Shown piece after piece: positions 15,422 to 37,716 of a DNA stretch of 37,716 nucleotides (position 1 is its first letter; every line of letters begins with the position of its first letter). The notes under the pieces are model-generated. The model was not told the origin of the DNA and did not search any database. It saw only the letters and a list, made by a program, of their open reading frames with translations. Source of the stretch: a virus; IMG/VR virus record IMGVR_UViG_3300045988_027439. One strand, given 5' to 3'. The position numbers were made by a program, and so were the translations under genes.

Positions 15422-16007
15422 TTGCCGTTCCCGTCCTTTCTCTCTGCATCACATACTCATTTTGCATCTTCTGCAATCTGACGAGACCTTTTTTGAACTC
15501 AAGATCATCGCCATTCATGCAGACATCGAATATTTTCTCATAATCAACAATGTGCATCTTGATGAACTCTGCCTCTGCTGCCGTCCGGCTCTCATTGATG
15601 AACATTCCCTTGACTGCCTCTTTTATCATCTCGCAATGGGTCTTTTCCTCCTCTGACTGTGGCGGTGTGCTTTCGATCATGCGGTCATAGACTTTGTCAA
15701 TCGCCCCTGCAATCAGTTCTCTCCAACCTTTGCCCTTTTCCCCGATTAACTGGTTTTCAATGTCCTCAAATCGGTTTCCGTGTCCTGCTGCTACGATGCG
15801 GATGTCCTTTTTGCCCTTTGCTGCAATCAGAATCAAATCGTCATCGTATGCTTCCATGTAATAGTCAAATTTTGCATCGAAATTCTCTCTCGGATTGATG
15901 ATGATTTCCGGCTGACTGTTTCCCTCCGTCTTGATACTCACTCCGATGTATTTCGCATCCTTGATTTTCGCATTGATAAATTCTGCCTTTAATGTGCTTT
16001 TGTTCAT
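15414..16007 (-). CDS. Hypothetical protein
   Basis: 197 aa. ATGA-coupled to the upstream gene with a GGAGGAG RBS. No motif recognised. Confidence 0.55.
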   Translation of the reverse strand: MNKSTLKAEFINAKIKDAKYIGVSIKTEGNSQPEIIINPRENFDAKFDYYMEAYDDDLILIAAKGKKDIRIVAAGHGNRFEDIENQLIGEKGKGWRELIAGAIDKVYDRMIESTPPQSEEEKTHCEMIKEAVKGMFINESRTAAEAEFIKMHIVDYEKIFDVCMNGDDLEFKKGLVRLQKMQNEYVMQRERTGTANE

Positions 16008-16577
16008 GCTGCTCCTCCATTCACTAATCTGTTGAGTAACTGTTCATACATGGTCTTGTATGTGTCTCTTTCTGTCTGCAATCGGATTGTCTCCTCTGAT
16101 GATGCTGTGTTTTCCGGCTTTACATTTGCCTTTTCTTTCAATTCCTGCTCCATCGCTTGAATCTTGTTGCGATAGAGTTCGATTTCCTCCTGTTGATTCT
16201 TGATTGTCTCATTGTATTTCTTTGAGGTTTTCATGCTGCTGTCAAGCTGCAAGGAAATCATGAGAGCGATGTCGATGTTCTCCATCTCTTTGTCTGTACA
16301 CTCCCCGATATACGTTCCGATGCGTTCTGTTGATACCGAATAGACCTGTTCACACAAAACGGTGCTTGGTCTGCCCGTCGATCTCACTGTCACATGCGTC
16401 GGAAGATCTGTTTTCGGCTGTGTGGTCATATATACAATTTCAACGACATTACTGTTCTCATTGTTCTTGTTATTGCTCACAATGACCGCCGGACGGTCGG
16501 AGTGCTGCTCGCTCCCGCTATACGATGCCCCCCCCTCTGCTGATATAGAACATTTCGCCTCTCTTGATGTTATCCAT
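16004..16577 (-). pseudogene. PemK/MazF (EndoA)-family toxin gene with C-terminal coiled-coil extension, interrupted by a frameshift in a G8 (plus-strand C8) tract
   Basis: The ATG at 16577 (GGAGG 7 nt upstream) gives MDNIKRGEMFYISRGGGIV*, ending at 16518. Removing one G gives MDNIKRGEMFYISRGGASYSGSEQHSDRPAVIVSNN...LPTHVTVRSTGRPSTVLCEQVYSVSTERI...IDIALMISLQL. This aligns along its length with my recollection of B. subtilis EndoA (KRGDVY..GSEQGGVRPVLVI..LPTHVEI..SVILLEQIRTIDKQRL..ALQISLAL). Confidence 0.85.
16528..16535. repeat. C8/G8 homopolymer at the MazF frameshift site
   Basis: Counted directly: gatgCCCCCCCCtctg. Confidence 0.95.
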
Positions 16578-16877: not shown

Positions 16878-18197
16878 CTACGCCTCACCGTCTTTCATGA
16901 GTTTGGTTGCCATGATGCAATATCCGTCCTCAATTCCGGTGTAGTCCTCAAGAATATACGTCACAAGCACCTTGACCATGCGTCCGGTGTTCTTCCCGTC
17001 TGCAAATTCCATCATCTCAAGAATGTCGCCTTTTTTATAGCCTCTGTCATTCTTCTGGAGTTCAAATGTTTTGATTCCGTTTGCCACATCATCGAAATAA
17101 GGCTTTGCAAGGCGTATCTGATGCACTTTCTGTCCGGTCTCCTGTGTATCTGACGGGAGACTCTGCATCTTCTCCTCCTGCTCCATCTCACGGAGTTTTT
17201 TCTTTGTCTCACGGTCGATTGCATCCTGCTCCTCTGAATATCTCTGCTCGTCGGTCTTGTACGCCTCCGCACGGTTGTTGTACTGGTCGCATGAGGTACA
17301 TGTTCCGGTCTTGACATTGCATGTCTCATATTCGGTGCAGGAATAGCAAATGGATGTGATTCCCTCCGGATGCGGTGTCTCGTAATCGTCGCCCGCTCTT
17401 ACTTCCGGAGGATTCATGCTGCTTTCTGCTGTGTCGGATTCTGACACCTGCTGCCCCGCTGCTTTCGCTTCTTTCATGTCTTTCACTTCTTTATGTGTCA
17501 GTTCTCCGGTCTCTGCGAATTTTCCCAGTGCCTCACGCTGCTCGTCCTCTGTCATTCCGCTCAATTCATAAGCTGCGGAGAATGTGAGACGTTCTTTCTT
17601 GAGTTCTTCCCTCCATTCCGGAATCAGATTGTTGTTGACTGCCTCAATCTGTGCAATCTTCGTTTTGCTCATGTGCAGCATCGAGGAAATCACATCTCTC
17701 AACCGTCCAGATTGCAGGTCATATCCCTTGATTTTTTTCCCTGCTGCTTTCATACGCTCAAGAGATGCCTTGAGGCGTGTTTCCTCCTCGATCATGTCAG
17801 AAATGGTCTTTGTACGGTATGCGTTGGCGATGATGATTTCAACCTGCTCCTCGTCATCATCCTGCGGTGTGGTCAATTTACTTGTTGCCAGTTCAAAGTC
17901 GTTATATCCCTTTGATACGAGGTACTTGAGAGCCTCCCATCGTCTTTCACCTGCGACGATTCTGTATTCGCCCTTTTCGCATGGTGCATATACGAGTTCG
18001 AGGTTCTGTTTCAAACCGGACAGGAGGATATCTCCTGCCAGTTCTTCGATGTCCTTGACACTGTAAAAATTCATGGTGTTGCGGTACATCTTGAAAATCG
18101 AAATGTCCTTTGTCCGGAATCTCGCTCTCGGAGATTCGTCAATTCCTGCTTTGCTGTTTTTGTTGAGTGCGTCTTTGACGCTGAATCCTGCTGCCAT
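16878..18197 (-). CDS. ParB-like N-terminal domain protein fused to a Cys-rich linker and a C-terminal DUF3850/ASCH-like domain
   Basis: ParB box YRIVAGERRWEALKYL. HTH-like MSKTKIAQIEAVNN. Cys cluster ICYSCTEYETCNVKTGTCTSCDQY. C-terminal VHQIRLAKPYFDDVANGIKTFELQKNDRGYKKGDILEMMEF resembles DUF3850 (ASCH fold). Confidence 0.75.
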   Translation of the reverse strand: MAAGFSVKDALNKNSKAGIDESPRARFRTKDISIFKMYRNTMNFYSVKDIEELAGDILLSGLKQNLELVYAPCEKGEYRIVAGERRWEALKYLVSKGYNDFELATSKLTTPQDDDEEQVEIIIANAYRTKTISDMIEEETRLKASLERMKAAGKKIKGYDLQSGRLRDVISSMLHMSKTKIAQIEAVNNNLIPEWREELKKERLTFSAAYELSGMTEDEQREALGKFAETGELTHKEVKDMKEAKAAGQQVSESDTAESSMNPPEVRAGDDYETPHPEGITSICYSCTEYETCNVKTGTCTSCDQYNNRAEAYKTDEQRYSEEQDAIDRETKKKLREMEQEEKMQSLPSDTQETGQKVHQIRLAKPYFDDVANGIKTFELQKNDRGYKKGDILEMMEFADGKNTGRMVKVLVTYILEDYTGIEDGYCIMATKLMKDGEA

Positions 18198-18215: not shown

Positions 18216-18638
18216 TTACTCTGTGAGTTTCTGTTTTTTTGTCTCGGTACGTTCGACGTTGTTTTCGCCCTTGCTATTCTGCGAAATAGAGGCTTTCACG
18301 CCTCCACGGAGGTTCAATGTGACCTTTGCCAGTCCTCCGGTGTAAATCTCCTCGACCGCTGCCTTGAGAATCTTCACAATTCCCTCTCCGCATCTCTTGT
18401 CCGGTGCTGCTGCCTCTCCGAACAGTGCAGCGACGTTCTGCATCGCCTTTTCTTTCCTCTGTTTCTCTTTCTGATATTCAACTGCATCCGGACAATTACA
18501 TGTCATGGTTGCCTGTTCCTCTGCCTGTGCTGCTGTCAGTTCTTCGTCTGCCTCAATCTGCGTCATTTGACCGCAGAATCTGCATTTTGCTGTTTTCACA
18601 ATATTTCCCATGCGTTTTTCCTCTCTTTCCGGTCTCAT
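18216..18638 (-). CDS. Hypothetical Cys-containing protein (start at 18638 or at MGNIVK, 18611)
   Basis: 140 aa. CRFCGQ...CNCPD suggests a small zinc-binding motif. Both candidate starts are plausible (ATGA overlap versus GAGAGGA RBS). Confidence 0.5.
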   Translation of the reverse strand: MRPEREEKRMGNIVKTAKCRFCGQMTQIEADEELTAAQAEEQATMTCNCPDAVEYQKEKQRKEKAMQNVAALFGEAAAPDKRCGEGIVKILKAAVEEIYTGGLAKVTLNLRGGVKASISQNSKGENNVERTETKKQKLTE

Positions 18639-19021
18639 GCGACCTCATGCAAAATAATTTTTCTGAATATGCTCTCGAATATTGGAACGGCGATGCTGTT
18701 TCCTGCTTGGTCGTATAATGCTTTGTAATACTTCCCGTTTCTTTTCTGCACCGCTTTCGCCCTGTCGAAATCCTCGTCCGTGTACCCCATCAACCGCCAA
18801 CACTCACGCTCAGTCAAATAACGATAGCGTCCATCGCCTCGGTCGATGACCTGTGCGGGTGTCCGGTCTTGTCTCGTTGTGATGGTATATGCACATTCTT
18901 TGATAACCGTCGCCCTGCGGATGCCTTTTTCTCCGATACATGCAAGGACGGACGGTTGTGTCACGTTGTAAACATCCGGAACACTTGCATCGTCCTCAAG
19001 AAACTCCTGCAAATTACGCAT
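18635..19021 (-). CDS. C5-cytosine DNA methyltransferase, C-terminal part (TRD + motifs IX-X)
   Basis: RYLTERECWRLMGY (motif IX) and QAGNSIAVPIFE (motif X). The frame stays open upstream and reads FEFDDLIRTPMRNLQEF. Confidence 0.85.
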   Translation of the reverse strand: MRNLQEFLEDDASVPDVYNVTQPSVLACIGEKGIRRATVIKECAYTITTRQDRTPAQVIDRGDGRYRYLTERECWRLMGYTDEDFDRAKAVQKRNGKYYKALYDQAGNSIAVPIFESIFRKIILHEVA

Positions 19022-19029
19022 CGGCGTTC

Positions 19030-19617
19030 TTATGAGGTCATCAAATTCAAATTTTCTCCATTCAGAGCAGAAACTGTGAACACTCGCTCTCTCGCTTGTG
19101 GCAATCCGAACTCTCTTGCATCCAGTACCTCAAAATTATTCGTATATCCCAATCGCTCCATTTCAACCATGTATCTGTCAAAATTCGGTCTCATGTACTT
19201 TGATTTCACATTCTTCACGTTTTCCCATATCACATAACGAGGTCGCCATTCGCCCATATTCTCAATGATATGTATTGTCTCCCACATGAGAGAGGAACGT
19301 GTTCCGCTCCCCTCGTCTGAACCTTTGCCTCGGTTGATTCTGCCCTCTCCTGTCGCCTTTCCTTGATGTCCTGCAATGCTCATGTCTTGGCAAGGTGAGC
19401 CATGAATCAGAATGTCCGGTTTCAGATTCCATCCGACAACCGTTTGTGTTTTATATGCCAGTTCCTCACGGAACATTGAATTGTACGAACGCACCGCCTT
19501 TTCATTGATTTCCACATAGTCGATTGCTTTTGTCGGAATGTTCAAATTTCTCAAGGCACATCGAGGCGACCCAATCCCTCCGAATAACTCAAGGATTTGT
19601 ATTGTCTCGTTTTCCAT
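19030..19617 (-). CDS. C5-cytosine DNA methyltransferase, N-terminal part (motifs I-VIII)
   Basis: ELFGGIGSPR (motif I), HGSPCQDMSIAG (motif IV), VIWENVKN (motif VI), QARERVFTVS (motif VIII). Ends at a TAA shortly after the A4T3 run. Confidence 0.88.
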   Translation of the reverse strand: MENETIQILELFGGIGSPRCALRNLNIPTKAIDYVEINEKAVRSYNSMFREELAYKTQTVVGWNLKPDILIHGSPCQDMSIAGHQGKATGEGRINRGKGSDEGSGTRSSLMWETIHIIENMGEWRPRYVIWENVKNVKSKYMRPNFDRYMVEMERLGYTNNFEVLDAREFGLPQARERVFTVSALNGENLNLMTS

Positions 19618-19620
19618 GCC

Positions 19621-20400
19621 TTACCCCTCCATTTCCTTGAGTAACTCATGTACAACGCATCTGTAATCTTGAGACACGATTCCACGCTTTGAAAATTTCG
19701 GGAGCGGTATCATTGCCGTTGTTGATTTCTCCGCAACAATGGAACGGCGAACCGGAGTGACAAACATGTCAAATCCGGATTCTGCTTTCAACCACTCCTC
19801 AACCTCAAGAGATGTCTTGTTTTTCTGTCGCATTGTCATGAGTGCCTTGATTCTCAAGTCCGGATTGATGTCTCTCAAGTCCTCAATCTGCTCCTCAAGG
19901 TTCTGCAATGCCTCGATTTCATATCCCCCGACCTTTACCGGAGCAATAATGAGTTCTGTTGCAATCAGAATGTTAATGACCACCATGTCAAGCAGTCGAC
20001 CACAATCGCAAATGCAATAATCGTATGCGTCCGCTACCTCCTCCAACGCCTCACGCAATCGTGTGACTTGATTGTCCTCTGACTTGAGCAGCAAATTCAT
20101 GTCCGTCTGCATGAGATAGCCATTTGCCGGAATGATGTCAACGTGCGAATATTCTGTCGGGCGAATCAGATCACTCGTTTTGTATGTACCGCCGACGCAT
20201 TCATGTTTCTCAAGCAGCTCACTCATTCCGATTCCGTCCGATTCAAATACTCCGAACGTCTTTGATGTATCGCCCTGCGGGTCTCCATCTAACACAAGCA
20301 CTCTTTTCCCCTGTTCCTCGCCCAACATATAAGCGATTGAATCGGATGTCGTCGTTTTCCCGATTCCTCCCTTTGGTGACATCACTGCAATAATTCTCAT
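19621..20400 (-). CDS. parA: ParA/Soj-family partition ATPase
   Basis: Deviant Walker A MSPKGGIGKTTT, followed by VLVLDGDPQGD. 259 aa. Confidence 0.88.
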   Translation of the reverse strand: MRIIAVMSPKGGIGKTTTSDSIAYMLGEEQGKRVLVLDGDPQGDTSKTFGVFESDGIGMSELLEKHECVGGTYKTSDLIRPTEYSHVDIIPANGYLMQTDMNLLLKSEDNQVTRLREALEEVADAYDYCICDCGRLLDMVVINILIATELIIAPVKVGGYEIEALQNLEEQIEDLRDINPDLRIKALMTMRQKNKTSLEVEEWLKAESGFDMFVTPVRRSIVAEKSTTAMIPLPKFSKRGIVSQDYRCVVHELLKEMEG

Positions 20401-25433: not shown

Positions 25434-26486
25434 ATGAAACTACCGAACGGATTCGGAACGGTTTACAAACTTTCGGGAAATCGCCGGAATCCTTATGTTG
25501 CCAAAAAGACAAAAGGATGGGAAATTGACCCGAAAACAGGTAAATCAAAACAATTATATACGGTCGTCGGATATTACCCGACCCGTAAAGAGGCATTGAC
25601 CGCACTTGCGGAGTTCAATGCAAATCCTTATGATGTGGATGCTGCAAAAGTCACATTCGAGGATGTATATGAGCGATGGTCTGATGAACATTTTCCGACC
25701 GTCAGTGATTCCAACGTCAAGGGTTATCGTGCAGCATGGGCGTTGTGTGATAAACTTGCACATATGCGTTTTGTTGATGTAAAGCTCGATCACCTGCAAA
25801 TGATTGTCGATGAATCCGGCAAAAATTATCCGACGCTCCGGAAATTGAAAGTCCTGCTCGGTCTGATGTATAAATACGCCGTGATTCATGAGATTATTCC
25901 AAAAGAACGGAATCTCGTTGAATACCTCGACATCAAAAAGGCAGGAAACCCGAACGCATACAACCGGAAACCTTTTTCAAAGACAGAGGTCAAAAAGATA
26001 TGGGATGTCAAGGATTCAAATATATATTATACTGTCATCCTCATGCTGTTATATACCGGATGCAGAATCGGCGAACTCCTCGACCTCAAGAAAGAAAATG
26101 TGAACCTTGAGGAAAGATATTTCAAGATTGTCGCCTCAAAAACTGCTGCCGGAATCCGTACCGCTCCAATCTCCGAAAAGGTTTATCCGTTCTTTGAATA
26201 CTGGTACAACCTCAATGATTGTGAATATCTCCTCTCTACTCCGGATGGTGAGCATTTCAAATACCGGAATTATTATGATTCGTACTGGTCGCCACTTATT
26301 GAGACCCTCGGAATGAAACACCGCCCTCACGATACCCGTCACACATGTATTTCTATGTTGACGGTTGCCGGAGTGTCAGACAAGGTCATCAAGAAAATTG
26401 TCGGTCATAAAGGACAGGGCGTGACAGAGGTCGTATATACGCATTTTGAAATCGAGGAACTGATTGATGCTATCAACAAAATATAG
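25434..26486 (+). CDS. int: Tyrosine integrase (with N-terminal arm-type DNA-binding domain)
   Basis: Catalytic region CRIGELLDL...HRPHDTRHTCISML...VGHKGQGVTEVVYTH (R..HxxR..Y). N-terminal GTVYKLSGNRRNPYVAKK is AP2-like. Confidence 0.92.
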   Translation: MKLPNGFGTVYKLSGNRRNPYVAKKTKGWEIDPKTGKSKQLYTVVGYYPTRKEALTALAEFNANPYDVDAAKVTFEDVYERWSDEHFPTVSDSNVKGYRAAWALCDKLAHMRFVDVKLDHLQMIVDESGKNYPTLRKLKVLLGLMYKYAVIHEIIPKERNLVEYLDIKKAGNPNAYNRKPFSKTEVKKIWDVKDSNIYYTVILMLLYTGCRIGELLDLKKENVNLEERYFKIVASKTAAGIRTAPISEKVYPFFEYWYNLNDCEYLLSTPDGEHFKYRNYYDSYWSPLIETLGMKHRPHDTRHTCISMLTVAGVSDKVIKKIVGHKGQGVTEVVYTHFEIEELIDAINKI

Positions 26487-27843: not shown

Positions 27844-27857
27844 GATTATCCCTCCTG

Positions 27858-28691
27858 TTATCTTAAAATTCTATTGACTTCATTTTGAACTGCCTTTGCA
27901 TCATATCCCGCTGCTGTGAGGCGATTCGTTCTGTCGCTACCATTTCCCCATTTTCCGTTGATGACCTCTTTTGCCACTTCATTGATGCTTTTGCTCGGTG
28001 CTGATGTTTCTCCTTTTAAGATTCTGTTGACTTCATTTTGAACCGCCTTTGCATCATATCCCGCTGCTGTGAGGCGATTCGTTCTGTCGCTACCATTTCC
28101 CCATTTTCCGTTGACGACCTCTTTTGCCACTTCATTGATGCTTTTGCTCGGTGCTGATGTTTCGGACGCTTTTGAACCTGTTGTCAGATTTGTCGCAACG
28201 TGAGCGTTGTCGTTGAGGAGAATATCTCCCTCAAGCAAATACGCATCCGATGTCAGATATTTGCTATCTGTCAACACCTCGAATCCTGCTGCCTTGAGAC
28301 CCGCTCTCATGTTTCCGGTATAGAGATAAATGCTCACATTCTTCATTTTCTCATTTCCCAGTCTGTAGCCTGCACCCTTTACGATTGCAGCGACACCGGA
28401 TGAACAATCTGCCTCACACGCAATCGTGATTTGTGCAGGGTCGTAATTTGATGCCTTGAGATGCTCCCAAAATGTGTATCTCTCTGACTGGTCATATCCG
28501 ATTTTGTCATTGACCGCTGCTGCCTTTGCCATGCTTGCGATCATTTTTCTAACCTTTGCATCCGGATGACGGAGTACACATTTCCACGGGCGATTATACC
28601 AGTTTATAACCCGCCACTCTGTTCTCGTCTGGTCTCCCGCCTTTCCTCCGCTGTATCTGTTGTTTTCATCATGTCCACAATTTGAAATCAT
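27858..28691 (-). CDS. Endolysin: N-terminal peptidoglycan hydrolase domain + two CW_7 cell-wall-binding repeats
   Basis: The C-terminus has two copies of SINEVAKEV(V/I)NGKWGNGSDRTNRLTAAGYDAKAVQNEVNRIL (Cpl-7-type CW_7). The N-terminal CGHDENNRYSGGKAGDQT motif occurs in phage lysins, but I cannot assign the exact catalytic class. Confidence 0.8.
   Translation of the reverse strand: MISNCGHDENNRYSGGKAGDQTRTEWRVINWYNRPWKCVLRHPDAKVRKMIASMAKAAAVNDKIGYDQSERYTFWEHLKASNYDPAQITIACEADCSSGVAAIVKGAGYRLGNEKMKNVSIYLYTGNMRAGLKAAGFEVLTDSKYLTSDAYLLEGDILLNDNAHVATNLTTGSKASETSAPSKSINEVAKEVVNGKWGNGSDRTNRLTAAGYDAKAVQNEVNRILKGETSAPSKSINEVAKEVINGKWGNGSDRTNRLTAAGYDAKAVQNEVNRILR
27861..28142 (-). repeat. Near-identical tandem 144-bp repeat encoding the two CW_7 modules
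   Basis: Units at 27861..27998 and 28005..28142. The DNA is almost identical by eye (a few substitutions, one giving V/I). Confidence 0.85.
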
Positions 28692-30124: not shown

Positions 30125-30353
30125 TCTCCTTTCTGAACTCTGTCGCCTCGATGTCGTCGTTGTCGCAATATTTCCGCATGTGGTATTCGAGAACATCCAT
30201 CTCCTTGTCTGCCCCCTCTACCTCATGCCGGAGTTCTGCTCTGACCTCCTCTTCGATTTTCGACTGTTCAATGATTGTTTGCTGCTTTTTCACGATTGCT
30301 GATAGATTTTCCGTCACATCACACAATCGTGATATTATTTCAAGCGGACTCAT
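30108..30353 (-). CDS. Hypothetical protein (81 aa)
   Basis: ATGA-coupled to the XkdX-like ORF. No motif recognised. Confidence 0.5.
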   Translation of the reverse strand: MSPLEIISRLCDVTENLSAIVKKQQTIIEQSKIEEEVRAELRHEVEGADKEMDVLEYHMRKYCDNDDIEATEFRKENAVDD

Positions 30354-30502
30354 TCTGCATCACCGCCGGAGAATTTTTCTCCTGTGATGTATTCATATTC
30401 ATCTGCTGAAATACTGCCCTTTGCGACACGCTCGGAAATCTGTTTCTTTGTGAGAGTGCCTTTTTTGTACATTCTTTTGAGACTTTCAACAAGCATTTTC
30501 AT
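30350..30502 (-). CDS. XkdX-family small phage protein (50 aa), not on the ORF track
   Basis: MKMLVESLKRMYKKGTLTKKQISERVAKGSISADEYEYITGEKFSGGDAE. The ...KG.I...EYE.ITGE.. signature is typical of XkdX. Confidence 0.65.
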   Translation of the reverse strand: MKMLVESLKRMYKKGTLTKKQISERVAKGSISADEYEYITGEKFSGGDAE

Positions 30503-30503
30503 A

Positions 30504-30830
30504 CTAAATCAACCCCTCCTCAATCAACTGCTGTGTGTATTCGTCTATGACTGCATCTTTCTGAAACTGTGTCACTGATTCGACGATTCCGGATGTGTTC
30601 TCCTCAACGACTGACTTCATGAGTGTCATGTTCTCATATTCCTTGACTGTCATTTCTTTCTCGTCGTACTGCCATTCGGTCACTGTCTGCATCTTTCCGT
30701 CGCTGCCCTCAACCTCTCTTGTCACCTGTTCGATGTTCTTACGCAGGTAAACCGTTGACGGCGACGATGTCCTGTCGACCTCCTCCGGCTTGTCCGACTG
30801 TGTTCCTGTCACCTTTTTCCAGTCTGTCAT
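30504..30830 (-). CDS. Hypothetical protein (108 aa) preceding XkdX
   Basis: GGAG lies 7 nt upstream. The 5' end overlaps the RT ORF by 92 nt in another frame. Confidence 0.55.
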   Translation of the reverse strand: MTDWKKVTGTQSDKPEEVDRTSSPSTVYLRKNIEQVTREVEGSDGKMQTVTEWQYDEKEMTVKEYENMTLMKSVVEENTSGIVESVTQFQKDAVIDEYTQQLIEEGLI

Positions 30831-32124
30831 GTTCGTTCTCCTTTCTGCTATGCTTTGAAACTATCCTCTTGAGTTTCTTAACATTGATTTTTGGTTTGAT
30901 GTAATCAATGTAATAGTTGTATGTGTCCGTGTGTTTGAACAATCCCATATATGACAACATCACCGATGCGTTATACCATGAGATTTTATTCTGCTTTGAG
31001 ATATGGTTTGTCTTACGTCTCGCAGCCTCAATGTTTGATTTCCGGATGGTTGTCCTGTCATGGTGAAATTGAAATCCCATAAAATCAAGCATACGACCCT
31101 TTGTGACCTGCTTTCCGTCTTTATCAAGTACCGGATTCCCGCCTTTATCAAATACCGGATATTCAAATCTAAACACCTGCCAATCGCCTTTTATTTCAAG
31201 GTCGAGGTTGTCATTCAGATATGTTTCAATTGCTGCATGTATTTTGTGTAGTTTCTTTTTGCTCTTTCCCAGTATCACCATGTCGTCCATGTATCGCATG
31301 TAATGTTCTGCGCGGAGTTTCTCTTTGATGTAGTGGTCGAGTGCTTTCAAGTAAAAATTGCCGAACCATTGTGATGTGAAATATCCCAACGGAACGCCTT
31401 TTCGCATCTCCTCAATAATTTCTTTCAGTTCATCGAACATCGCTCCTGTGATGCCGATTTCCTGCAATATCTCCAACGCTCCGGAGATGTCGTCAAATGC
31501 TATGCATCCGACAAGCGTTTTCGTCTGCTCTGCATCTATCTCAACGCCTGCATCCGTCAAAATCTTTGCAACGAGTGCTATTTTGTCATGCTCAATCAGT
31601 ATGCAGAGTAATCTATAAAACCGTTTATCTCGAATTACCTCTTTGAGTTTCCTTTTGAGGATTCTCCGGTTTATGGATTCAAAGAAATGGTGAACATCCA
31701 TCTTGAGAACAAAGAATTTCTTTCCGTCGTAGGAATCAAGCCATTTTCTCATGTACTTCTTTCCGTAATGAACACCCCTGCCCGGAATGCTCCCGCATGA
31801 AAATTCATACAATCCATTCATCACAATCGGTTTGAACTGACCTATTGCACAATGATGAATAACCTGTTCATATTTGTAATGCGGTTTCAATATGCGGCGT
31901 GTTTTCTTGCTGCTGCTCTCGTTGATGATGCTCGGTTTGTGATAGTCCGGAATGAACAACTCCTCTGTCAACATCTTTTTCAAGAGTTCTGTGTGTTCAT
32001 CGAGGTTCTCTAATACCTCCCGCACATCATTCCTGTTCTTTTTCTTTTTGGATGCATTTATAAAACACTGTTTTATGTAGTCGTCTTGTAACATTGGTTC
32101 ATATAGGTTGTTGTAACTTCTCAT
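30739..32124 (-). CDS. Diversity-generating retroelement (DGR) reverse transcriptase
   Basis: RT motifs RRILKPHYKYEQVIHHC, SIPGRGVHYG, VLKMDVHHFFESI, GVPLGYFTSQWFGNFYL (the DGR-type TSQ motif) and YMRYMDDMVILG (YxDD). The TR lies 125 nt upstream. Confidence 0.9.
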   Translation of the reverse strand: MRSYNNLYEPMLQDDYIKQCFINASKKKKNRNDVREVLENLDEHTELLKKMLTEELFIPDYHKPSIINESSSKKTRRILKPHYKYEQVIHHCAIGQFKPIVMNGLYEFSCGSIPGRGVHYGKKYMRKWLDSYDGKKFFVLKMDVHHFFESINRRILKRKLKEVIRDKRFYRLLCILIEHDKIALVAKILTDAGVEIDAEQTKTLVGCIAFDDISGALEILQEIGITGAMFDELKEIIEEMRKGVPLGYFTSQWFGNFYLKALDHYIKEKLRAEHYMRYMDDMVILGKSKKKLHKIHAAIETYLNDNLDLEIKGDWQVFRFEYPVFDKGGNPVLDKDGKQVTKGRMLDFMGFQFHHDRTTIRKSNIEAARRKTNHISKQNKISWYNASVMLSYMGLFKHTDTYNYYIDYIKPKINVKKLKRIVSKHSRKENEHDRLEKGDRNTVGQAGGGRQDIVAVNGLPA

Positions 32125-32249
32125 ATAGTATTTTCTTATCTCCTATCGGTTTTTGTGCGGATGCTTACTCAACCGACCCTATATCCGGAATGATTTTCGC
32201 CTTGTGGCGTGGGATATAGGCTGCATTTGATTAAACGCTCCGATATGAG

Positions 32250-32367
32250 AAGAAATTGGACGCACCGATGTAACAGTTCGCAGCGCCCGCAGAAGTGCTC
32301 AAATTCAAGCAATCCGCACCGCAGTACTCGCCATTGATACAGCCACCGCCGACAAGGGCGACCGCAG
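32250..32367 (-). repeat. DGR template repeat (TR), 118 bp, non-coding
   Basis: Aligns without gaps to 32511..32628 (offset 261). Contains 16 adenines on the coding sense. Lies between the target stop (70 nt away) and the RT start (125 nt away). Confidence 0.9.
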
Positions 32368-32437
32368 GGAGCAGGAACACCGCCCGACACCGCACCCTAT
32401 ATCCCTATATTCATTTTTCTAAAAACGACCACACCGC

Positions 32438-33784
32438 CTAACGGCGGGAATAGCGGAGGCGTTCCCCCTCCGTTCCTCCCCCTGCTGCTTGCGCAGCGAT
32501 AGGCTGTTCTAAGAAAACGGACGCACCGATGTAACAGTCCGCAGCGCCCGCAGAAGAGCTCAAATGCAAGTAATCCGCACCACAGCCCTCGCCAGAGACA
32601 CAGTGACCGCCGACAAGGGCGACCGCAGTAATTCCGGCATTCCACCAAAAATAGTCACATGTGTATGTGCTACTGCTGCCACCTATTGAATTGACAATGC
32701 GTCCGAATCTGCTTGACTTTGTTCCTTTCTGATAACCGTTGCCGGATGATGTGAATGTGATTCCGACCTTTTCAAAGTCCTTTCCTGTCAGATTGTACGG
32801 AGGTGTCATTTTCGCAAGAATTTCTCCTCCGACCATCAACAGACCGTTGATTCTATCCCAACGGTTGCCCCACCATTTTTCAATGTAGAACACTTTGACC
32901 TCATGGGTCGTGTCCTTATAACCGAAAAACTGTCCTTTGTTTGTCAATGTTCCGGTCGCAAGGTGTCCGTAATTCTGTGACGCATTATCAACATATCCGG
33001 ATGTCTGACCCTGTCCTAATGCAGTCTGCGAATTGTCTGTCTTTGACATAATCTTGAGCATACAATTCAACAAGTTTCGTTTGCTCCATGAGCCGATATT
33101 CCATCCCGCACCGTTTGCCTTTGCTCTTGCGATCTCTGTTGATGCGTTTGTATTATACATGAGTGCCTGTCCTGCAAGTGAGCGGATGCGTGTTCCATCA
33201 TACGAACCGCCAAACATCGGGAAATAGAGTTTGTCCGCATGTGAACCGTCCTCTCTGACATATGCGTCATCGTTGTATGATTCATCGTACTGGACATTTG
33301 AAATAATCATGTACTCATAGTTTCCGACTTCAAACTGCGAGAGCCAAATCTTGCCCTTGTCACCGCTGCCATCGAATACACTCATTGCATTTCCTCCGTA
33401 TGCCGTGTTTGAGACATCGGATGCCGTTTTTCCGTCTGCTTTCTTTGTGTGGTCGTTCGGGTCGAGTTTATAATCTTCTGTACCGTCATATTTGACCATT
33501 GCCGGATAATTGTTCTTTACAAAAAAGACGTTTCCCCAGTCTCCAAAATCGAACCGTCCGGCAGAATAATTCATCGCAGCGGGTGTCATTCCCACCGCAT
33601 CGAAAAGATATGTGCATCGTGTTGCCGGATTGCTGTCATTTTTGTTGATTTTCATTCCGTAACGCTTTACACCCTTTATTCTTACGTCTTCCCCGACTGC
33701 TGCCAGTATAGCGTTTGTATTCGCATATGTGCGGTCGAGTGTTTCTTTGTCTGCTACTTTTACAATTACGTCTCCGCTTGCCAT
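32438..33784 (-). CDS. DGR target protein: putative receptor-binding tail fibre with a C-terminal variable region
   Basis: 448 aa. The VR encodes AVALVGGHCVSGEGCGADYLHLSSSAGAADCYIGASVF, whereas the TR template encodes AVALVGGGCINGEYCGADCLNLSTSAGAANCYIGASNF. GGAGG lies 8 nt upstream. Located in the fibre module. Confidence 0.85.
   Translation of the reverse strand: MASGDVIVKVADKETLDRTYANTNAILAAVGEDVRIKGVKRYGMKINKNDSNPATRCTYLFDAVGMTPAAMNYSAGRFDFGDWGNVFFVKNNYPAMVKYDGTEDYKLDPNDHTKKADGKTASDVSNTAYGGNAMSVFDGSGDKGKIWLSQFEVGNYEYMIISNVQYDESYNDDAYVREDGSHADKLYFPMFGGSYDGTRIRSLAGQALMYNTNASTEIARAKANGAGWNIGSWSKRNLLNCMLKIMSKTDNSQTALGQGQTSGYVDNASQNYGHLATGTLTNKGQFFGYKDTTHEVKVFYIEKWWGNRWDRINGLLMVGGEILAKMTPPYNLTGKDFEKVGITFTSSGNGYQKGTKSSRFGRIVNSIGGSSSTYTCDYFWWNAGITAVALVGGHCVSGEGCGADYLHLSSSAGAADCYIGASVFLEQPIAAQAAGGGTEGERLRYSRR
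32511..32628 (-). repeat. DGR variable repeat (VR) at the 3' end of the target gene
   Basis: There are 14 mismatches to the TR. Nine are at TR adenines (plus-strand VR positions 32517, 32518, 32539, 32557, 32566, 32586, 32595, 32596, 32599). Five are at non-adenines (32571, 32582, 32587, 32604, 32605). Confidence 0.9.
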
Positions 33785-33787
33785 GTG

Positions 33788-34219
33788 TTAAGCCTCCCTT
33801 ATCGTCAAAATTCCATCCTCAACCGTGAGGACACATGTTTTCTTTGTGACGGTATCAACCATAGTGTTGAGACCGTTCACAATGCCTTGACACGCTTTTG
33901 CTGCTGCACTCGCTGTCAACGCTGCATTGTTTGCCGTTGCTGCTGCACCGTTTGCACTGTTCGTCGCCTCCGTCATGTTCTTACTGAAATTGTTCACGGT
34001 GTTCATATATCCCTGTGTCAATGTCAGTATTTCCTCATAACGGGCATTGTTAACGATAATCGGCAGGTCAAAAAATTTCTTTTTACCATCTCCCTGTCTG
34101 ATTTGATAATGACCGGATGTGTCAATCTCAACTCCGATTTCTCTTTCCTTGAGAATCAGAGTGTCCTCAACTGCTTTCCAGTCTGCCGTTGTTCCGGTGC
34201 ATGGTCTGATTGCTGCCAT
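33788..34219 (-). CDS. Tail-fibre-associated protein with an Mtd_N / hyaluronidase-N-like motif
   Basis: GTTADWKAVEDTLILKEREIGVEIDTSGHYQIRQGDGKKKFFDLP resembles the W..NP.L..GE.G.E.DT...KIGDG..W..LP motif of major-tropism-determinant N-terminal domains. Confidence 0.5.
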   Translation of the reverse strand: MAAIRPCTGTTADWKAVEDTLILKEREIGVEIDTSGHYQIRQGDGKKKFFDLPIIVNNARYEEILTLTQGYMNTVNNFSKNMTEATNSANGAAATANNAALTASAAAKACQGIVNGLNTMVDTVTKKTCVLTVEDGILTIREA

Positions 34220-34309
34220 TGTTCAACCTCCTTTGCTCCGTGATTATGGAATATATCACACAATCACTCCTTTGTGTTCGTTTCGCCGTCTGTTTCCAGT
34301 ATCATGGAA

Positions 34310-35371
34310 TTATACTGCTAATTGTCGGGAGGTCGGCGTTCCTCCGTCAAAATCAACGCCCTCATTCGCATTTCTGACCTGTGGCGTTGCTCCGTCAATG
34401 AATACCGGTGTCACCGTTCGCAGATACGGCGTTTCTCCGTCACAATCAAGATACATGCTCGAATATAACGCCTCTGCACGGTTGAAATAGTCCTGCACAC
34501 TCTCAAGGATTTTTTCTGCTGATGCAAGCAGTGAATTTTGAATCGTGTCATCAATATCCTTTTTGTCCTGCTCGACCTGTTTCTTTGCCTCTGCAACTGC
34601 TGTCTGCATCTGTGACACATCCTGTCGAATCTGTGTCGCCGTGTTCAATGTCGCCTCAAGCTGCTCTTGATTCTGCAATGCGTCCTCTGCCCGCTCTGTG
34701 ACCTCTTTGCAGGCTGTCGTCGCCCTCTTGGATTCATCCGTTGCATCGTTCGTATTCTTGACCGCCTGTGAGGTGTCCTGCTGCCTCTGCTGTTCCTGTT
34801 GGATGCGGGTGTTTTCATTCTGCTGTCGATTATTCTCTGCTGTCGCTCTTGCCTGTTCTGCTTTTACTCTCGCATTTTCTGCGGTCACTCTTGCCTGTTC
34901 CGCTTTCTTGACTGCCTCATTCGTGCTGTCAATACTCTCAATGTGACCCTTGACACGATTCTCAAGTTCTGTGAACTCATTCGCTGATAGAATCGCATTG
35001 TCGTTCCTCTGCGACGGTTCAATCTCCATTGTGAACGATGCGGATGTGATAACCTGTGAATCGTCACTCGTCCGGATTTCAATGTCACAATACGCCGTTC
35101 CGGAGGCTGCAAGTGCTTGATTTGTCAGTTCGACCGTCACATCCGAACCGGAATATGTACATGTGTTATACACATGTTTCCCGTCCGGCTTTGCAATATT
35201 GATGACCACTCTCGACCCTGTCGGGATTGTGTACGCTTCACCGTTATTGAGTAATTTCGCAATGATGAATCGTGTTGCCTTGTCTCCCTGCTTTACAGAT
35301 ACTAAATATCTTTTCGTGTCTCCGGACATCTCAAGATTGATGTATGTTATCAATTTCGTCAACGCTGCCAT
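34310..35371 (-). CDS. BppU-family baseplate upper protein with a long coiled coil
   Basis: The N-terminus (KQGDKATRFIIAKLLNNGEAYTIPTGSRVVINIAKPDGKHVYN...GTAYCDIEI) matches the BppU_N pattern. The middle is Q/E-rich coiled coil. Confidence 0.6.
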   Translation of the reverse strand: MAALTKLITYINLEMSGDTKRYLVSVKQGDKATRFIIAKLLNNGEAYTIPTGSRVVINIAKPDGKHVYNTCTYSGSDVTVELTNQALAASGTAYCDIEIRTSDDSQVITSASFTMEIEPSQRNDNAILSANEFTELENRVKGHIESIDSTNEAVKKAEQARVTAENARVKAEQARATAENNRQQNENTRIQQEQQRQQDTSQAVKNTNDATDESKRATTACKEVTERAEDALQNQEQLEATLNTATQIRQDVSQMQTAVAEAKKQVEQDKKDIDDTIQNSLLASAEKILESVQDYFNRAEALYSSMYLDCDGETPYLRTVTPVFIDGATPQVRNANEGVDFDGGTPTSRQLAV

Positions 35372-35400: not shown

Positions 35401-35607
35401 TTATTCTCCCTGTTCCTCAATCCAGTCATTGATGAATTTTTTCAGCCAATCAATATGGCTTTGTGCCTCCTCGCTCAAAACCGTCATGCTGCCTTTGTTG
35501 TTGTCACTGGTGGTTTTTCCGCTGTCGGTCATTTCCGTGTATGTGAACCCCAGTCGCTGCCCCTGTGCTGCATTTGTGGCGTTGAATCCTGTGATAACTC
35601 GTCTCAT
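35401..35607 (-). CDS. Hypothetical small protein (68 aa)
   Basis: ATGA-coupled to the tail-tip gene. GGAGG lies 7 nt upstream. Confidence 0.5.
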   Translation of the reverse strand: MRRVITGFNATNAAQGQRLGFTYTEMTDSGKTTSDNNKGSMTVLSEEAQSHIDWLKKFINDWIEEQGE

Positions 35608-37716
35608 TCTGATTCCTCCATTCTTTCAATTATTCGGTTTTGTTCTTCCTGTACTTCGATTTCATCCTTTTCCATCTCATACAGTAACATCATCTGATTT
35701 CTCATTTGCTCATTGAGCATTTCCTGCTCCTCTGCCGTTATATCTTCTTTTTCCGTTATATCAGACTGTTCAATCCTTGTGTCTCTGTTTCCCTTTTGTC
35801 TTGTCTTTACTTCCCAGTAAAATTCAAGTTTCGGTGTGCCTTTTACTACAAAATAACCGTCTTTTTCATTTGTTGATTCAACGTATAATCCGCCTGTTCC
35901 CTTTGCGGTGAGCATTACAATATATTTCATGTCTCTCTCTACTGTCAGCAGGAAATCATCATCAAGATACACATAGCATTGACCGTCCTCGTCAAGTTTT
36001 CCCGTTCCCATGTCTCCGAATGTAGGGGATGCCGTTTCATATGCGTACATCTCGATGTTCCGTCCGTCATCGGTGTGTATGATTCGCGTTTTCTTCCCTA
36101 AACATCCGATAGCTCCATACGCATATATATCATTATTCGCCGTGAATCCATATCCCCATAGAGTGCCACCGTCTTCACCGACATATATATTTTCCCCGAC
36201 ATATCCCAGTAACATGGAGTAATTGAGTTGTGACAATGTCCCTATTTTAAATTCACTATTGATGTACAATCCGGAATAAAATTTCGGCGATAGCGCAAAC
36301 ACATTCCCCACATTGGTGATTTCACAGTTTCCTCCAATGAGCAGCGAACCTCCTGTGATTGTTAACGCCTTTGTTTCTGCCGAACCGTCTGTGTTAATTT
36401 TAAAATTTGAGTTTGCCGTCACTGCTCCGTTCAAACTTATTTTTTCTGCATTTATCGACACTTTTTCTGCTGACTGATTGATTTTTGAGATAATCTCGTC
36501 ACTTCCGACTTTTTTTGAAACAGTTGATTCAATCGCATCCGCTTTTACTTTAATTGCAGAGTTCATTTCTTCCGTTGTGGAATACTCTGTCAACTTCTCG
36601 TCGGTCGCTGCATTAGCGTTCTTCTCCGCTGCATTGGCTGCATCCTGTGCCGTCTTATTCGCTGCGGTGATCTTCTCTGACACAGAGGTTTTTGTCTCAT
36701 AGGTCTTTGACACTCCTAAATTGATTTCATCGGCTTTCATGTCGATTGCCGATTTCATCTCCTCTGTGGTGGAATACTCTGTCAACTTCTCGTCGGTCGC
36801 TGCATTAGCGTTCTTCTCCGCTGCTGCAACTTTCTCCGATACAGTCTTTTTTGTTTCATACACCTGTGAAACGCCTAAACTGATCTCGTCTTTTGCTGCG
36901 GTGATATGTGATTCAACATCGCTTTTTGTGTAATATCCATCTTTCAACACCTTTTTTGTGTTGCTGTTGGCGATGGAAATTGCCTCCTCCGTAGCTGCTG
37001 CCGTTGCTTCTTTTTGAATATCCGCAAATGTTTTTCGTACATTTGAAATCTCAACCGTATTTTTTTTCGGTGTTTCCGGATATTCCGTAATTTTGACAAT
37101 TCTCTGTTTTTCTTTTGTTCGGGTTTTCTTTGACACAAGTGTGACCGTGTCTCCGATTCCGTATGAAAGAATGTCTTTGTACTCCTCTGACGCTTTCGCA
37201 AGGTCAACAACCTCCGCAGTATATGCCTTGTACGGTCGTGACATTTCCTCAATCTTTGCCGTCGCATCCTCAATCAGACTTGTGGTGTTGGTGTATCGTT
37301 CATCTTTCCACACATACGCCTTGACTTTGGAGCTATACTGAAAATTATCGATGTAATCTTTTCCGGTCAACCATTCCGGTGTGATGCCGTCTTTGCCAAT
37401 CGGATAGATTCTTGTATAAAAATCATAAGTGTCGGATTTCAAAGATATTTTTCGGAGGTTTATCCCCTCTATGAAATAGCAGCCTTTATCACTGCCTATT
37501 CTTTCGTAAATATTCACCGTTTTATTGATTGAATCAATGATACATTCGCACCTATATGTTGATAGGCACTTTTGCAGGACATCCCACGCCGTGATGTTCT
37601 CCTGCTCGTCAATGGTTCTTTTTTTTGTGACCGTGCATGTTCCAACATGCCACCCCGTACCCTCGAACGCAAACTCAAGACATGCTCTGATTGTCTGTTC
37701 ATCCGATTCAAAGCCA
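35604..37716 (-). CDS. Tail-tip / minor structural protein (tail endopeptidase-like), C-terminal part of the junction-spanning gene
   Basis: The frame stays open upstream of the track's GTG (37517) through to the window end and joins 1..368. IYERIGSDKGCYFIEGINLRKISLKSDTYDFYTRIYPIGKDGITPEW is typical of the siphovirus minor structural / tail endopeptidase N-terminal region. Confidence 0.8.
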   Translation of the reverse strand, partial: GFESDEQTIRACLEFAFEGTGWHVGTCTVTKKRTIDEQENITAWDVLQKCLSTYRCECIIDSINKTVNIYERIGSDKGCYFIEGINLRKISLKSDTYDFYTRIYPIGKDGITPEWLTGKDYIDNFQYSSKVKAYVWKDERYTNTTSLIEDATAKIEEMSRPYKAYTAEVVDLAKASEEYKDILSYGIGDTVTLVSKKTRTKEKQRIVKITEYPETPKKNTVEISNVRKTFADIQKEATAAATEEAISIANSNTKKVLKDGYYTKSDVESHITAAKDEISLGVSQVYETKKTVSEKVAAAEKNANAATDEKLTEYSTTEEMKSAIDMKADEINLGVSKTYETKTSVSEKITAANKTAQDAANAAEKNANAATDEKLTEYSTTEEMNSAIKVKADAIESTVSKKVGSDEIISKINQSAEKVSINAEKISLNGAVTANSNFKINTDGSAETKALTITGGSLLIGGNCEITNVGNVFALSPKFYSGLYINSEFKIGTLSQLNYSMLLGYVGENIYVGEDGGTLWGYGFTANNDIYAYGAIGCLGKKTRIIHTDDGRNIEMYAYETASPTFGDMGTGKLDEDGQCYVYLDDDFLLTVERDMKYIVMLTAKGTGGLYVESTNEKDGYFVVKGTPKLEFYWEVKTRQKGNRDTRIEQSDITEKEDITAEEQEMLNEQMRNQMMLLYEMEKDEIEVQEEQNRIIERMEESE
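36577..36824 (-). repeat. Internal 192-bp (64-aa) direct repeat in the tail-tip gene
   Basis: gtggaatactctgtcaacttctcgtcggtcgctgcattagcgttcttctccgctgc occurs at 36577 and 36769. The protein repeat is AAEKNANAATDEKLTEYSTTEEM(K/N)SAI. Confidence 0.85.
37618..37716. repeat. Terminal overlap copy 2 (identical to 1..99)
   Basis: Same as copy 1. The 99-nt length is typical of a de Bruijn k-mer overlap on a circular contig rather than a biological terminal repeat (inference). Confidence 0.95.

Follow-up and report, generated by a model that had tools for sequence, protein, structure and literature searches.

Introduction

In the temperate phage BPP-1, the diversity-generating retroelement (DGR) mtd-avd-TR-brt carries a variable repeat (VR) at the 3' end of the gene for the tail-fibre tip and, upstream of the reverse transcriptase (RT) gene, a template repeat (TR), which in the textbook model "remains unchanged throughout the process". 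The present work deals with the virus record IMGVR_UViG_3300045988_027439, a stretch of 37,716 nt hereafter called the window, and with a cassette in which target gene, TR and RT gene follow one another on the minus strand. This region is very probably a DGR of a temperate siphovirus-type phage of human-gut Agathobacter, and one whose template has itself been rewritten in an adenine-specific manner. As such, the DGR of the window is nothing unusual within a known class of great size, gut phages carrying tens of thousands of DGRs (MGV) and a DGR of Eubacterium rectale being listed already in 2011; the interest lies in the naturally eroded template.

The cassette shares with BPP-1 the temperate phage setting, a VR at the 3' end of a tail-fibre tip gene and a TR upstream of the RT gene, an RT with the motifs [I/V/L]GxxxSQ and YMDD that is closest to bRT in sequence and fold, a substitution of ~50% of the adenines against <1% elsewhere, an AAY-rich consensus template (no possible stop codons, ~10^14 variants), and a GC-rich segment common to both repeats, followed by TR/VR mismatches and then by a hairpin with a stop codon in or beside it. 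It departs from BPP-1 in that avd is missing and the TR directly follows the target gene, in that the RT has 461 amino acids (aa) instead of 328, with a confidently predicted ~70-aa helical insertion and a longer C-terminus, in the spacer RNA motif (RT-18 instead of RT-10), and in a boundary of 2 mismatches (5 in 21 bp in BPP-1) with a hairpin of 5-bp stem and GTAA loop. Cassettes made of target, TR and RT only are found likewise among the Avd-less DGRs, avd being absent in 26% of 372 DGRs, for which Avd-independent homing was inferred (Wu et al. 2018, NAR 46:11). As in TaqVP from Thermus aquaticus (5vf4) and Mtd (1yu0), the VR lies in the C-terminal part of the target, although the overall architecture of the target differs from both.

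Adenine-specific self-mutation of the template, with a shrinking search space, has been reported in synthetic DGRs, namely DGRec and the BPP-1 DGR in E. coli (10.1101/2025.03.24.644984; 10.64898/2026.07.21.739853), the authors of which contrast it with natural DGRs; it is regarded as a defect peculiar to synthetic systems. Unlike the window, these systems overexpress a RecT-type recombinase and are devoid of the natural initiation of mutagenic homing (IMH) sequence and hairpin targeting; the erosion described here occurs instead in wild phage genomes, at 5 of ~120 unique loci and with no recognisable RecT or Erf gene. Theory, for its part, treats adenine loss as slow spontaneous mutation (10.64898/2026.02.18.706561). 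Regarding natural TR erosion, a literature search of incomplete coverage retrieved only the synthetic-system reports, lineage-level TR variants in Treponema and the theory paper.

Repeat pair in the window and in related loci

The cassette comprises the following features:
32250-32367, minus strand: template repeat (TR), non-coding, eroded (repeat search, family comparison)
32511-32628, minus strand: variable repeat (VR), encoding residues ~386-425 of the target (repeat search, family comparison)
32438-33784, minus strand: target gene, tail-fibre or receptor-binding protein of 448 aa with the VR near the C-terminus (phrog_5302)
30739-32124, minus strand: DGR reverse transcriptase, 461 aa, intact (Pfam RVT_1; phrog_1423)

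The first-pass annotation of the window had proposed a DGR from a gap-free TR/VR pair of 118 bp, and the repeat search returned this same pair, i.e. one direct repeat of 118 nt, gapless and 88% identical, with a spacing of 261 nt; no third TR-like copy was found across the whole window. On the minus strand, the two copies differ at 14 positions, and a recount gave the partition initially announced, nine mismatches falling on the 16 TR adenines and five on the 102 remaining bases (one-sided Fisher test, p = 1.9e-6; 4.3e-5 once the boundary positions 110-111 are set aside). The substituted TR codons are ATC, AAT, TAC, AAT, ACT, AAC and AAT, the non-adenine cases being GGC, TGC and TGC. [quoted passage not shown]

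Related TR/VR pairs were retrieved by means of a 23-nt anchor from IMG/VR, public metagenomes and one genome, giving 124 unique pairs, and mutation rates were computed on 115 unique pairs with uneroded TRs. Over the 124 pairs, 25 distinct TRs stand against 124 distinct VRs, the consensus TR being present in 82/124. The adenine enrichment first noticed within the window extends to these related genomes, where 1329 of 2739 adenine sites are substituted (48.5%) vs. 34 of 9911 other sites (0.34%), with every mismatch at an adenine in 89 of the 115 pairs and a substitution spectrum at adenines of G 816, T 319 and C 194. These rates match the figures of bRT in vitro, that is 52% at adenines vs. 0.4-1.7% elsewhere. 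The consensus TR has 26 adenines and 14 variable codons, ten of them AAY, from which no stop codon can be reached and ~10^14.2 peptides can be encoded. By RT type, repeat pair, TR invariance and target fold, the family belongs to the DGRs. The TR is almost invariant and the VR variable, with the exception of five lineages, including the window, where the TR is adenine-eroded.

Adenine-specific erosion of the template repeat

The TR of the window holds 16 adenines vs. 26 in the family consensus, from which it differs at 11 positions, ten of them consensus adenines (hypergeometric p = 5e-7), namely 23G, 24G, 30T, 41T, 57G, 69G, 72C, 83G, 84C and 95T, plus the adjoining G94T. The changed sites are located at 32344, 32343, 32337, 32326, 32310, 32298, 32295, 32284, 32283, 32273 and 32272. 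Four of the five non-adenine mismatches between TR and VR (positions 23, 24, 41 and 57) are explained thereby, since the ancestral TR had an adenine at those sites, as the family consensus still does; the fifth, C46T, is a synonymous Cys change. The closest relative, L102, whose RT is 100% identical, keeps the consensus TR and matches the window at 99.8% of positions outside the repeats. Of the 47 differences between the window and L102 over 9,701 aligned bases, the VR accounts for 19, the TR for 11 and the remaining 9,465 nt for 17, i.e. an excess of changes in the TR (Poisson p = 8e-16). The non-adenine change G94T (TR 32273, VR 32534) adjoins the mutated A95 and replaces a Trp by a Cys in both the template and the expressed VR, this Trp being otherwise kept in the close homologues shown (A-x-W-x-IGAS); the tandem GA-to-TT change at positions 94-95 looks like one misincorporation event, later propagated.

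Four other lineages carry eroded templates, with changes at adenine sites in 15/16 cases for L040, 10/10 for L144, 4/4 for L160 and 18/18 for L207. Their RTs are intact, and their nearest relatives, 98.4-99.9% identical over the adjacent 1.5 kb, keep the consensus TR. Such comparisons point to five independent and recent TR erosions among the ~120 unique loci, window included. Each eroded TR was found with a single VR only. The pooled TR changes (A-to-G 38, C 9, T 9) have a spectrum resembling that of the VRs. On the 3' side, every one of the five tracts extends to the last mutable adenines (positions 95-98); the 5' ends lie at 23, 23, 23, 57 and 83, and four of the five tracts leave the TR-specific AA at 110-111 in place. 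As far as can be judged from these alignments, the polarity of the erosion tracts is that of retrohoming, in which integration takes place on the 3' side, in the common GC-rich segment, and the 5' side is resolved through homology.

Ordinary spontaneous point mutation, perhaps selected to hard-code a useful fibre sequence, is the sole way in which theory at present models TR adenine loss (10.64898/2026.02.18.706561), and the single A-to-G changes seen in L221 and L224 could be spontaneous. As the source of the eroded templates it is most improbable: the TR of the window took 11 changes in 118 nt vs. 17 in 9,465 nt (p = 8e-16), 10 of the 11 at adenines (p = 5e-7), the pooled TR spectrum (G 38, C 9, T 9) matches the VR one (G 816, C 194, T 319), and the tracts are contiguous and 3'-anchored.

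The eroded TR and the VR of the window recur, identical, in at least three further assemblies that agree with the window at 100% over 8-9 kb and were traced through the exact 448-aa target protein: JGI 3300006349, ENA ERZ28584437 (SAMN10658394, HMP sample) and ENA ERZ1034027 ('NODE' contig, 23x coverage). An assembly or polishing artefact, by which VR-variant reads would have been threaded into the TR position, might be fostered by the 23-nt 5' anchor identical in VR and TR and by heterogeneous VR populations, and one locus of the family, L173, looks error-prone. Such an origin is nonetheless scarcely credible, as the three assemblies come from different pipelines and agree on TR, VR and flank at 100%. 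With distances of at most 16 nt between the changed sites, and of 15 nt between T95 and the TR-specific AA, any k-mer of at least 21 links them and any k of at least 25 joins G23 to the unique 5' flank of the TR; besides, the 3' end of the TR is still the TR-specific one, and both flanks of the TR are preserved.

Some further loci were rejected as eroded templates. In L173 (VOFH01003356.1), a candidate sixth case, the TR is almost identical to the VR, but five single-base indels, four of them within the RT and one within the TR, indicate a likely error-prone long-read assembly, and it was excluded. In L106, L155 and L166, the 40-57 apparent mismatches correspond respectively to a deletion, a 3-nt VR deletion and an indel register shift. 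The deletion in L106 (IMGVR_UViG_3300029758_000026, ~2894-2963) took in one step the 3' half of the TR and ~1.1 kb of the RT gene, and the tail of a relative's target protein (P0026) resembles the RT C-terminus, which suggests a similar deletion or fusion. Cassette loss is thus also something that happens in this phage family.

With 10/24 mutable adenines lost and 14 remaining, the template of the window retains 11 variable codons, 3 of them AAY vs. 10 in the consensus, and ~10^8.3 possible peptides, meaning that its coding repertoire has been cut about a million-fold.

Candidate spacer RNA, 3' boundary and hairpin

Four further elements of the cassette may bear on cDNA synthesis and directionality:
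32132-32209, minus strand: RT-18 RNA motif (Rfam RF03021), inside the 125-nt TR-to-RT spacer
32250-32268, minus strand: TR 3' boundary segment, TCGGTGCGTCC-AA-TTTCTT, counterpart of IMH* in BPP-1
32511-32529, minus strand: VR 3' boundary segment, TCGGTGCGTCC-GT-TTTCTT, counterpart of IMH in BPP-1
32484-32497, minus strand: hairpin GCTGC-GCAA-GCAGC (DNA fold), 13 nt downstream of the VR

The RT-18 motif scores 41.6 bits, i.e. just above the gathering score of 41.3, and it occurs at the same place in 8/8 relatives tested, one of them with an RT only 72% identical; in two diverged relatives, its first hairpin shows a compensatory change from G:C to A:U. In the window, both spacer and RT-18 are identical to the family majority. 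The sister motif RT-10 sits between TR and brt of BPP-1, and other RT motifs were guessed to serve other DGRs (Weinberg 2017). By analogy, RT-18 is a candidate DGR spacer RNA that would position or prime cDNA synthesis.

Both repeats share a GC-rich 11-mer, after which, at positions 110-111, the TR has AA where most VRs have GT, with A at 110 in 4/124 and one GC variant. This appears to be a largely fixed TR/VR difference rather than an outcome of mutagenesis, and would mark the 3' limit of information transfer, none being seen 3' of position 98; a comparable 3' boundary has been reported in BPP-1 and Bacteroides DGRs. The VR boundary segment is largely conserved over the 124 unique loci and, from what is established in BPP-1 (PMC3240598), may play a role in directionality. 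The VRs of L186 and L205, together with duplicates (the 4/124 unique loci mentioned above), present a TR-like A at position 110 (GTCCATTTT), and the eroded TR of L040 a VR-like G at the same position; the boundary is not absolutely fixed.

A GC-rich hairpin, located 4-34 bp past the VR and with a loop of 4 nt, is required in BPP-1 and other phage DGRs (PMC3240598); in BPP-1, the sequence of this loop, which contains the stop codon as well, is critical. The family hairpin, GCTGC-GTAA-GCAGC, has the TAA stop codon of the target gene in its loop and is absent after the TR. The loop reads GTAA in 121/124 unique loci, a shorter GTA in two, and GCAA in the window alone. There, the minus-strand C at 32491 (T in relatives), which is position 2 of the loop, turns TAA into CAA and extends the target from 431 to 448 aa, a change unique to the window among the 124 loci. 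The extra C-terminal tail is predicted to be disordered (pLDDT below 50).

Origin of the erosion and activity of the element

By homology with BPP-1, TR, spacer and RT would be transcribed and the TR RNA copied to cDNA by the RT, with the RT-18-type spacer RNA positioning or priming the cDNA and misincorporation arising opposite adenines in about half of the cases. This cDNA would then take the place of the VR in the 3' end of the tail-fibre gene, with the GC-rich segment that directly follows the last mutable adenine as the 3' anchor of integration and a variable reach in the 5' direction. In this way, up to 14 codons of the receptor-binding tip, of variable-protein type, could be re-randomised without Avd. 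Occasionally, mutagenised cDNA would be installed at the TR instead of the VR, a leak in directionality that is fairly likely to have eroded the TR of the window. Since BPP-1 without its hairpin retains ~1e-3 of activity, and the GC-rich segment is shared with only two bases differing, the hairpin-less TR would be a plausible weak target. The loop change from GTAA to GCAA was rejected as a general cause diverting cDNA to the TR, the other four eroded loci having a normal loop.

Within positions 58-109 of the window, all six TR changes, including G94T, are also in the VR, and the remaining differences (62, 71 and 89) fall at surviving TR adenines. As the VR 3' block carries the changes of the eroded TR, the element would have been active after the erosion. 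A three-step history can be proposed, in which the 5' part of the VR (23C, 24A, 29G, 32T, 33C, 41G, 42G and 57A) would derive from an uneroded TR, the TR would then have been eroded, and the VR would finally have received its 3' part from the eroded TR, the crossover falling between positions 57 and 62.

Homologous recombination could have had a similar outcome, the TR being eroded by gene conversion from the VR of the same genome or of a co-infecting relative. TR and VR are direct repeats 261 nt apart with 85-90% identity, some TR/VR exchange by homologous recombination occurs in synthetic DGRec even with a dead RT, and the TR changes equal the own VR in 4/4 cases for L160 and 7/11 for the window, including the non-adenine G94T. 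Still, gene conversion is a rather doubtful explanation. The own VR has A or another base at many eroded sites in the window, L040, L144 and L207; it is still A at 2, 8, 3 and 5 of them, respectively, so that the present VR cannot be the donor of the eroded TR, nor can an eroded TR restore adenines to the VR. Moreover, all five tracts stop in the 11-14 nt that separate the last mutable adenine from the AA/GT difference, four of them keeping AA, which leaves very little homology for conversion, and those 11-14 nt are exactly where DGR cDNA integrates (PMC3240598). An annealing protein of RecT, Erf or Rad52 type could not be recognised in the genes tested, the ten ORFs of the replication module giving only SSB, an HNH endonuclease and a weak resolvase-like match; as some ORFs are unannotated, such a protein may still be encoded.

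Several observations weigh against one part or another of the overall account, from the BPP-1-like mechanism to the installation of mutagenised cDNA at the TR. Gene conversion may account for L160 and for the 3' block of the window, and the T shared by TR and VR of the window at position 30 fits the three-step history only as a ~5% coincidence. The evidence for polarity consists of two partial tracts only. The three assemblies may stem from one person or even from the same reads, and their VR is identical besides the eroded TR, which fits a currently quiet element. Compared with the published requirements (PMC3240598), the hairpin has a stem of 5 bp, not 7-10, and a GNRA loop, not GRNA. Lastly, no match to an avd or HRDC accessory gene was obtained with Pfam, PHROG or NCBIfam in the cassette, the neighbouring ORFs and several small ORFs elsewhere, and the homing mechanism therefore cannot be identical to that of BPP-1.

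The cassette of the window may also be seen as a decaying DGR, no longer active and offering no host-range switching at present. Ten mutable adenines are gone, with 3/10 AAY codons left, the hairpin loop change unique among 124 loci also abolishes the stop codon, the Trp of close homologues has become Cys in TR and VR, the VR is identical in the three assemblies, and cassette deletion derivatives exist in relatives, e.g. L106. This view remains tentative, and on the unlikely side, given that the RT is intact and 100% identical as a protein to that of a relative with a normal TR (L003, which has the consensus TR), that spacer and RT-18 are those of the family majority, that the VR 3' block calls for one or more transfers from TR to VR later than the erosion, and that fourteen mutable adenines are left.

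Beyond the window, the balance tips slightly towards natural DGRs not being strictly one-way. The installation of cDNA at the TR, at low rate and by the same 3'-anchored integration, would act as an irreversible ratchet of adenine loss, having turned five times in ~120 loci; the eroded lineages would be short-lived, as suggested by the occurrence of each eroded template with one VR, and templates would be kept adenine-rich by selection between lineages rather than by a flawless molecular directionality alone. A bolder version is that the write-back of a successful fibre sequence might sometimes be adaptive, by narrowing later searches around a working receptor-binding site.

The family offers a natural and assembly-replicated case of adenine-specific template erosion with clear polarity and measurable frequency. 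If DGR-mediated, this erosion sets a natural error rate for directionality, and it is a possible mechanism for the ageing and death of DGRs. In practical terms, DGR finders requiring adenine-only mismatches would mis-score such loci, 5/14 mismatches looking 'wrong' here, and the Agathobacter prophages become a tractable system for investigating what protects a template.

Reverse transcriptase

As stated in the first-pass annotation, the translated ORF has 461 aa and contains GVPLGYFTSQWFGNFYL and YMRYMDD. Together with YMDD, the stretch LGYFTSQ at residues 246-252 forms the DGR signature, motif 4 being [I/V/L]GxxxSQ in DGR RTs and QGxxxSP in other RTs (PMC7826257). Besides Pfam RVT_1, the protein matches phrog_1423 (7e-91). 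Its best PDB match by sequence is 8ub7 (E = 1.7e-17), which the structure-search annotation gives as the DGR ribonucleoprotein reverse transcriptase, Bordetella bRT; the next one is a group II RT at 1e-6. With an AlphaFold (AF2) model of pLDDT 77.5, the top five Foldseek PDB matches are all bRT (E = 8e-14, TM 0.72 on target), group II maturases, DRT9, DRT2 and retron RTs ranking below.

A group II intron RT/maturase was dismissed on the score of TIGR04416 (69.8 bits vs. a cutoff of 300), the motif LGxxxSQ and fold matches below bRT, and no group II intron RNA was found by Rfam in the window. A defence or retron RT was likewise set aside, NCBIfam models scoring 57 bits vs. 390 for Drt2, 56 vs. 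200 for Drt3a and 46 vs. 235 for retron. All NCBIfam models of group II intron, retron, DRT and Abi RTs actually score far under their cutoffs, and the PADLOC matches are to the generic RT domain only. An RT of one of the group II intron, retron or Abi types, which would have contradicted the annotation, is thus not what is found, bRT being the best match by both sequence and fold; along with the adenine bias of the family and the target fold match to TaqVP, this bears out the DGR interpretation.

Relative to bRT, residues 167-238 (window 31411-31626) form an insertion of ~70 aa, predicted as a bundle of five short helices (pLDDT 92-97), and the C-terminus is longer and basic. From this model, it is conceivable that the helical insertion substitutes in cis for Avd, itself a helical-bundle protein. 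Next to the RT, the maximal ORF 30504-30830 encodes an acidic protein of 108 aa, belonging to a PHROG of no known function, and overlaps the RT 3' end by 92 nt; gene callers start it later (at 73 aa), and it was not taken for an Avd.

Target protein

The target matches phrog_5302 'tail protein' (1e-73) and, with 448 aa, is longer than most listed homologues (429-431 aa). A sequence search against the PDB gave no match. The AF2 model has a pLDDT of 83.7 and a pTM of 0.85. A C-type-lectin fold of the Mtd/TvpA type had been put forward for testing at the variable end of the protein, and the fold prediction agrees insofar as TaqVP (5vf4), a DGR variable protein, ranks first among the PDB matches (E = 2.6e-11), followed weakly by Mtd (E = 0.03-0.3), both of them C-type-lectin folds, as in most known DGR targets. 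The TM-score is 0.40-0.49 with TaqVP and 0.22-0.31 with Mtd (1yu0), at a sequence identity of 11-14%. The BFVD matches are phage 'tail collar fiber' proteins, which the N-terminal part resembles. At 90% identity, the target clusters gather 15,513 and 9,645 distinct member sequences vs. 863-2,663 for the RT. Host-range switching, as announced in the annotation, may be a consequence of this DGR by analogy with the BPP-1 precedent.

Phage context and minor observations

The neighbours of the cassette are tail and lysis genes. Further features located in the window are:
33788-35371, minus strand: upstream fibre or baseplate genes, i.e. a 143-aa protein and a BppU_N protein of 353 aa (Pfam)
32432-32446, minus strand: terminator-like hairpin and T-run between target gene and TR (consensus scan only)
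30504-30725, minus strand: 73-aa ORF past the RT stop codon, with the start chosen by gene callers
30350-30502: Phage_XkdX family protein, next gene after the 73-aa ORF
25434-26486, plus strand: integrase

Two upstream neighbours had been named in the annotation. BppU stood firmly (BppU_N, E = 1.4e-14, in the 353-aa protein), whereas the Mtd_N-like gene amounts to a weak match of the 143-aa protein, which contains an alanine zipper, at 19.8 bits under a Pfam cutoff of 26.3 bits. A scan for a promoter of the TR returned nothing convincing.

The window is that of a temperate phage, with genes for an integrase and a Cro/CI-type repressor, for TerS/TerL, portal, ClpP-type protease, capsid, tape measure, Dit, Prophage_tail, BppU and holin, for an ELLD/CW_7 endolysin, and for SSB and ParA- and ParB-like proteins. 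The ends of the window (37716 to 1) are contiguous in the relatives L102, L100, L154 and L255, and because its ends adjoin there, it is probably a complete, circularly permuted temperate phage genome. All relatives come from human gut samples, several of them inside contigs of 100-340 kb, and the sole isolate-genome match to the locus is Agathobacter sp. LCP21S3_B2.

Repeats and accessory genes elsewhere in the genome deserve mention. The Prophage_tail gene of the tail tip (35604-37517) contains internal repeats at 36553-36632 and 36745-36824, ~92% identical, at which the otherwise identical assembly L254 aligns in two offset pieces, suggesting a difference in copy number or length. The ELLD endolysin (27858-28691) ends with two near-identical CW_7 cell-wall-binding repeats, visible in the DNA as a repeat at 27857-28010 and 28016-28163. 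Accessory genes at 16004-16480, 18635-19617, 19621-20400 and 16878-18197 encode a MazF-like toxin, a DNA cytosine methyltransferase seemingly split into two ORFs, a ParA-like ATPase and a ParB_N/DUF3850 protein.

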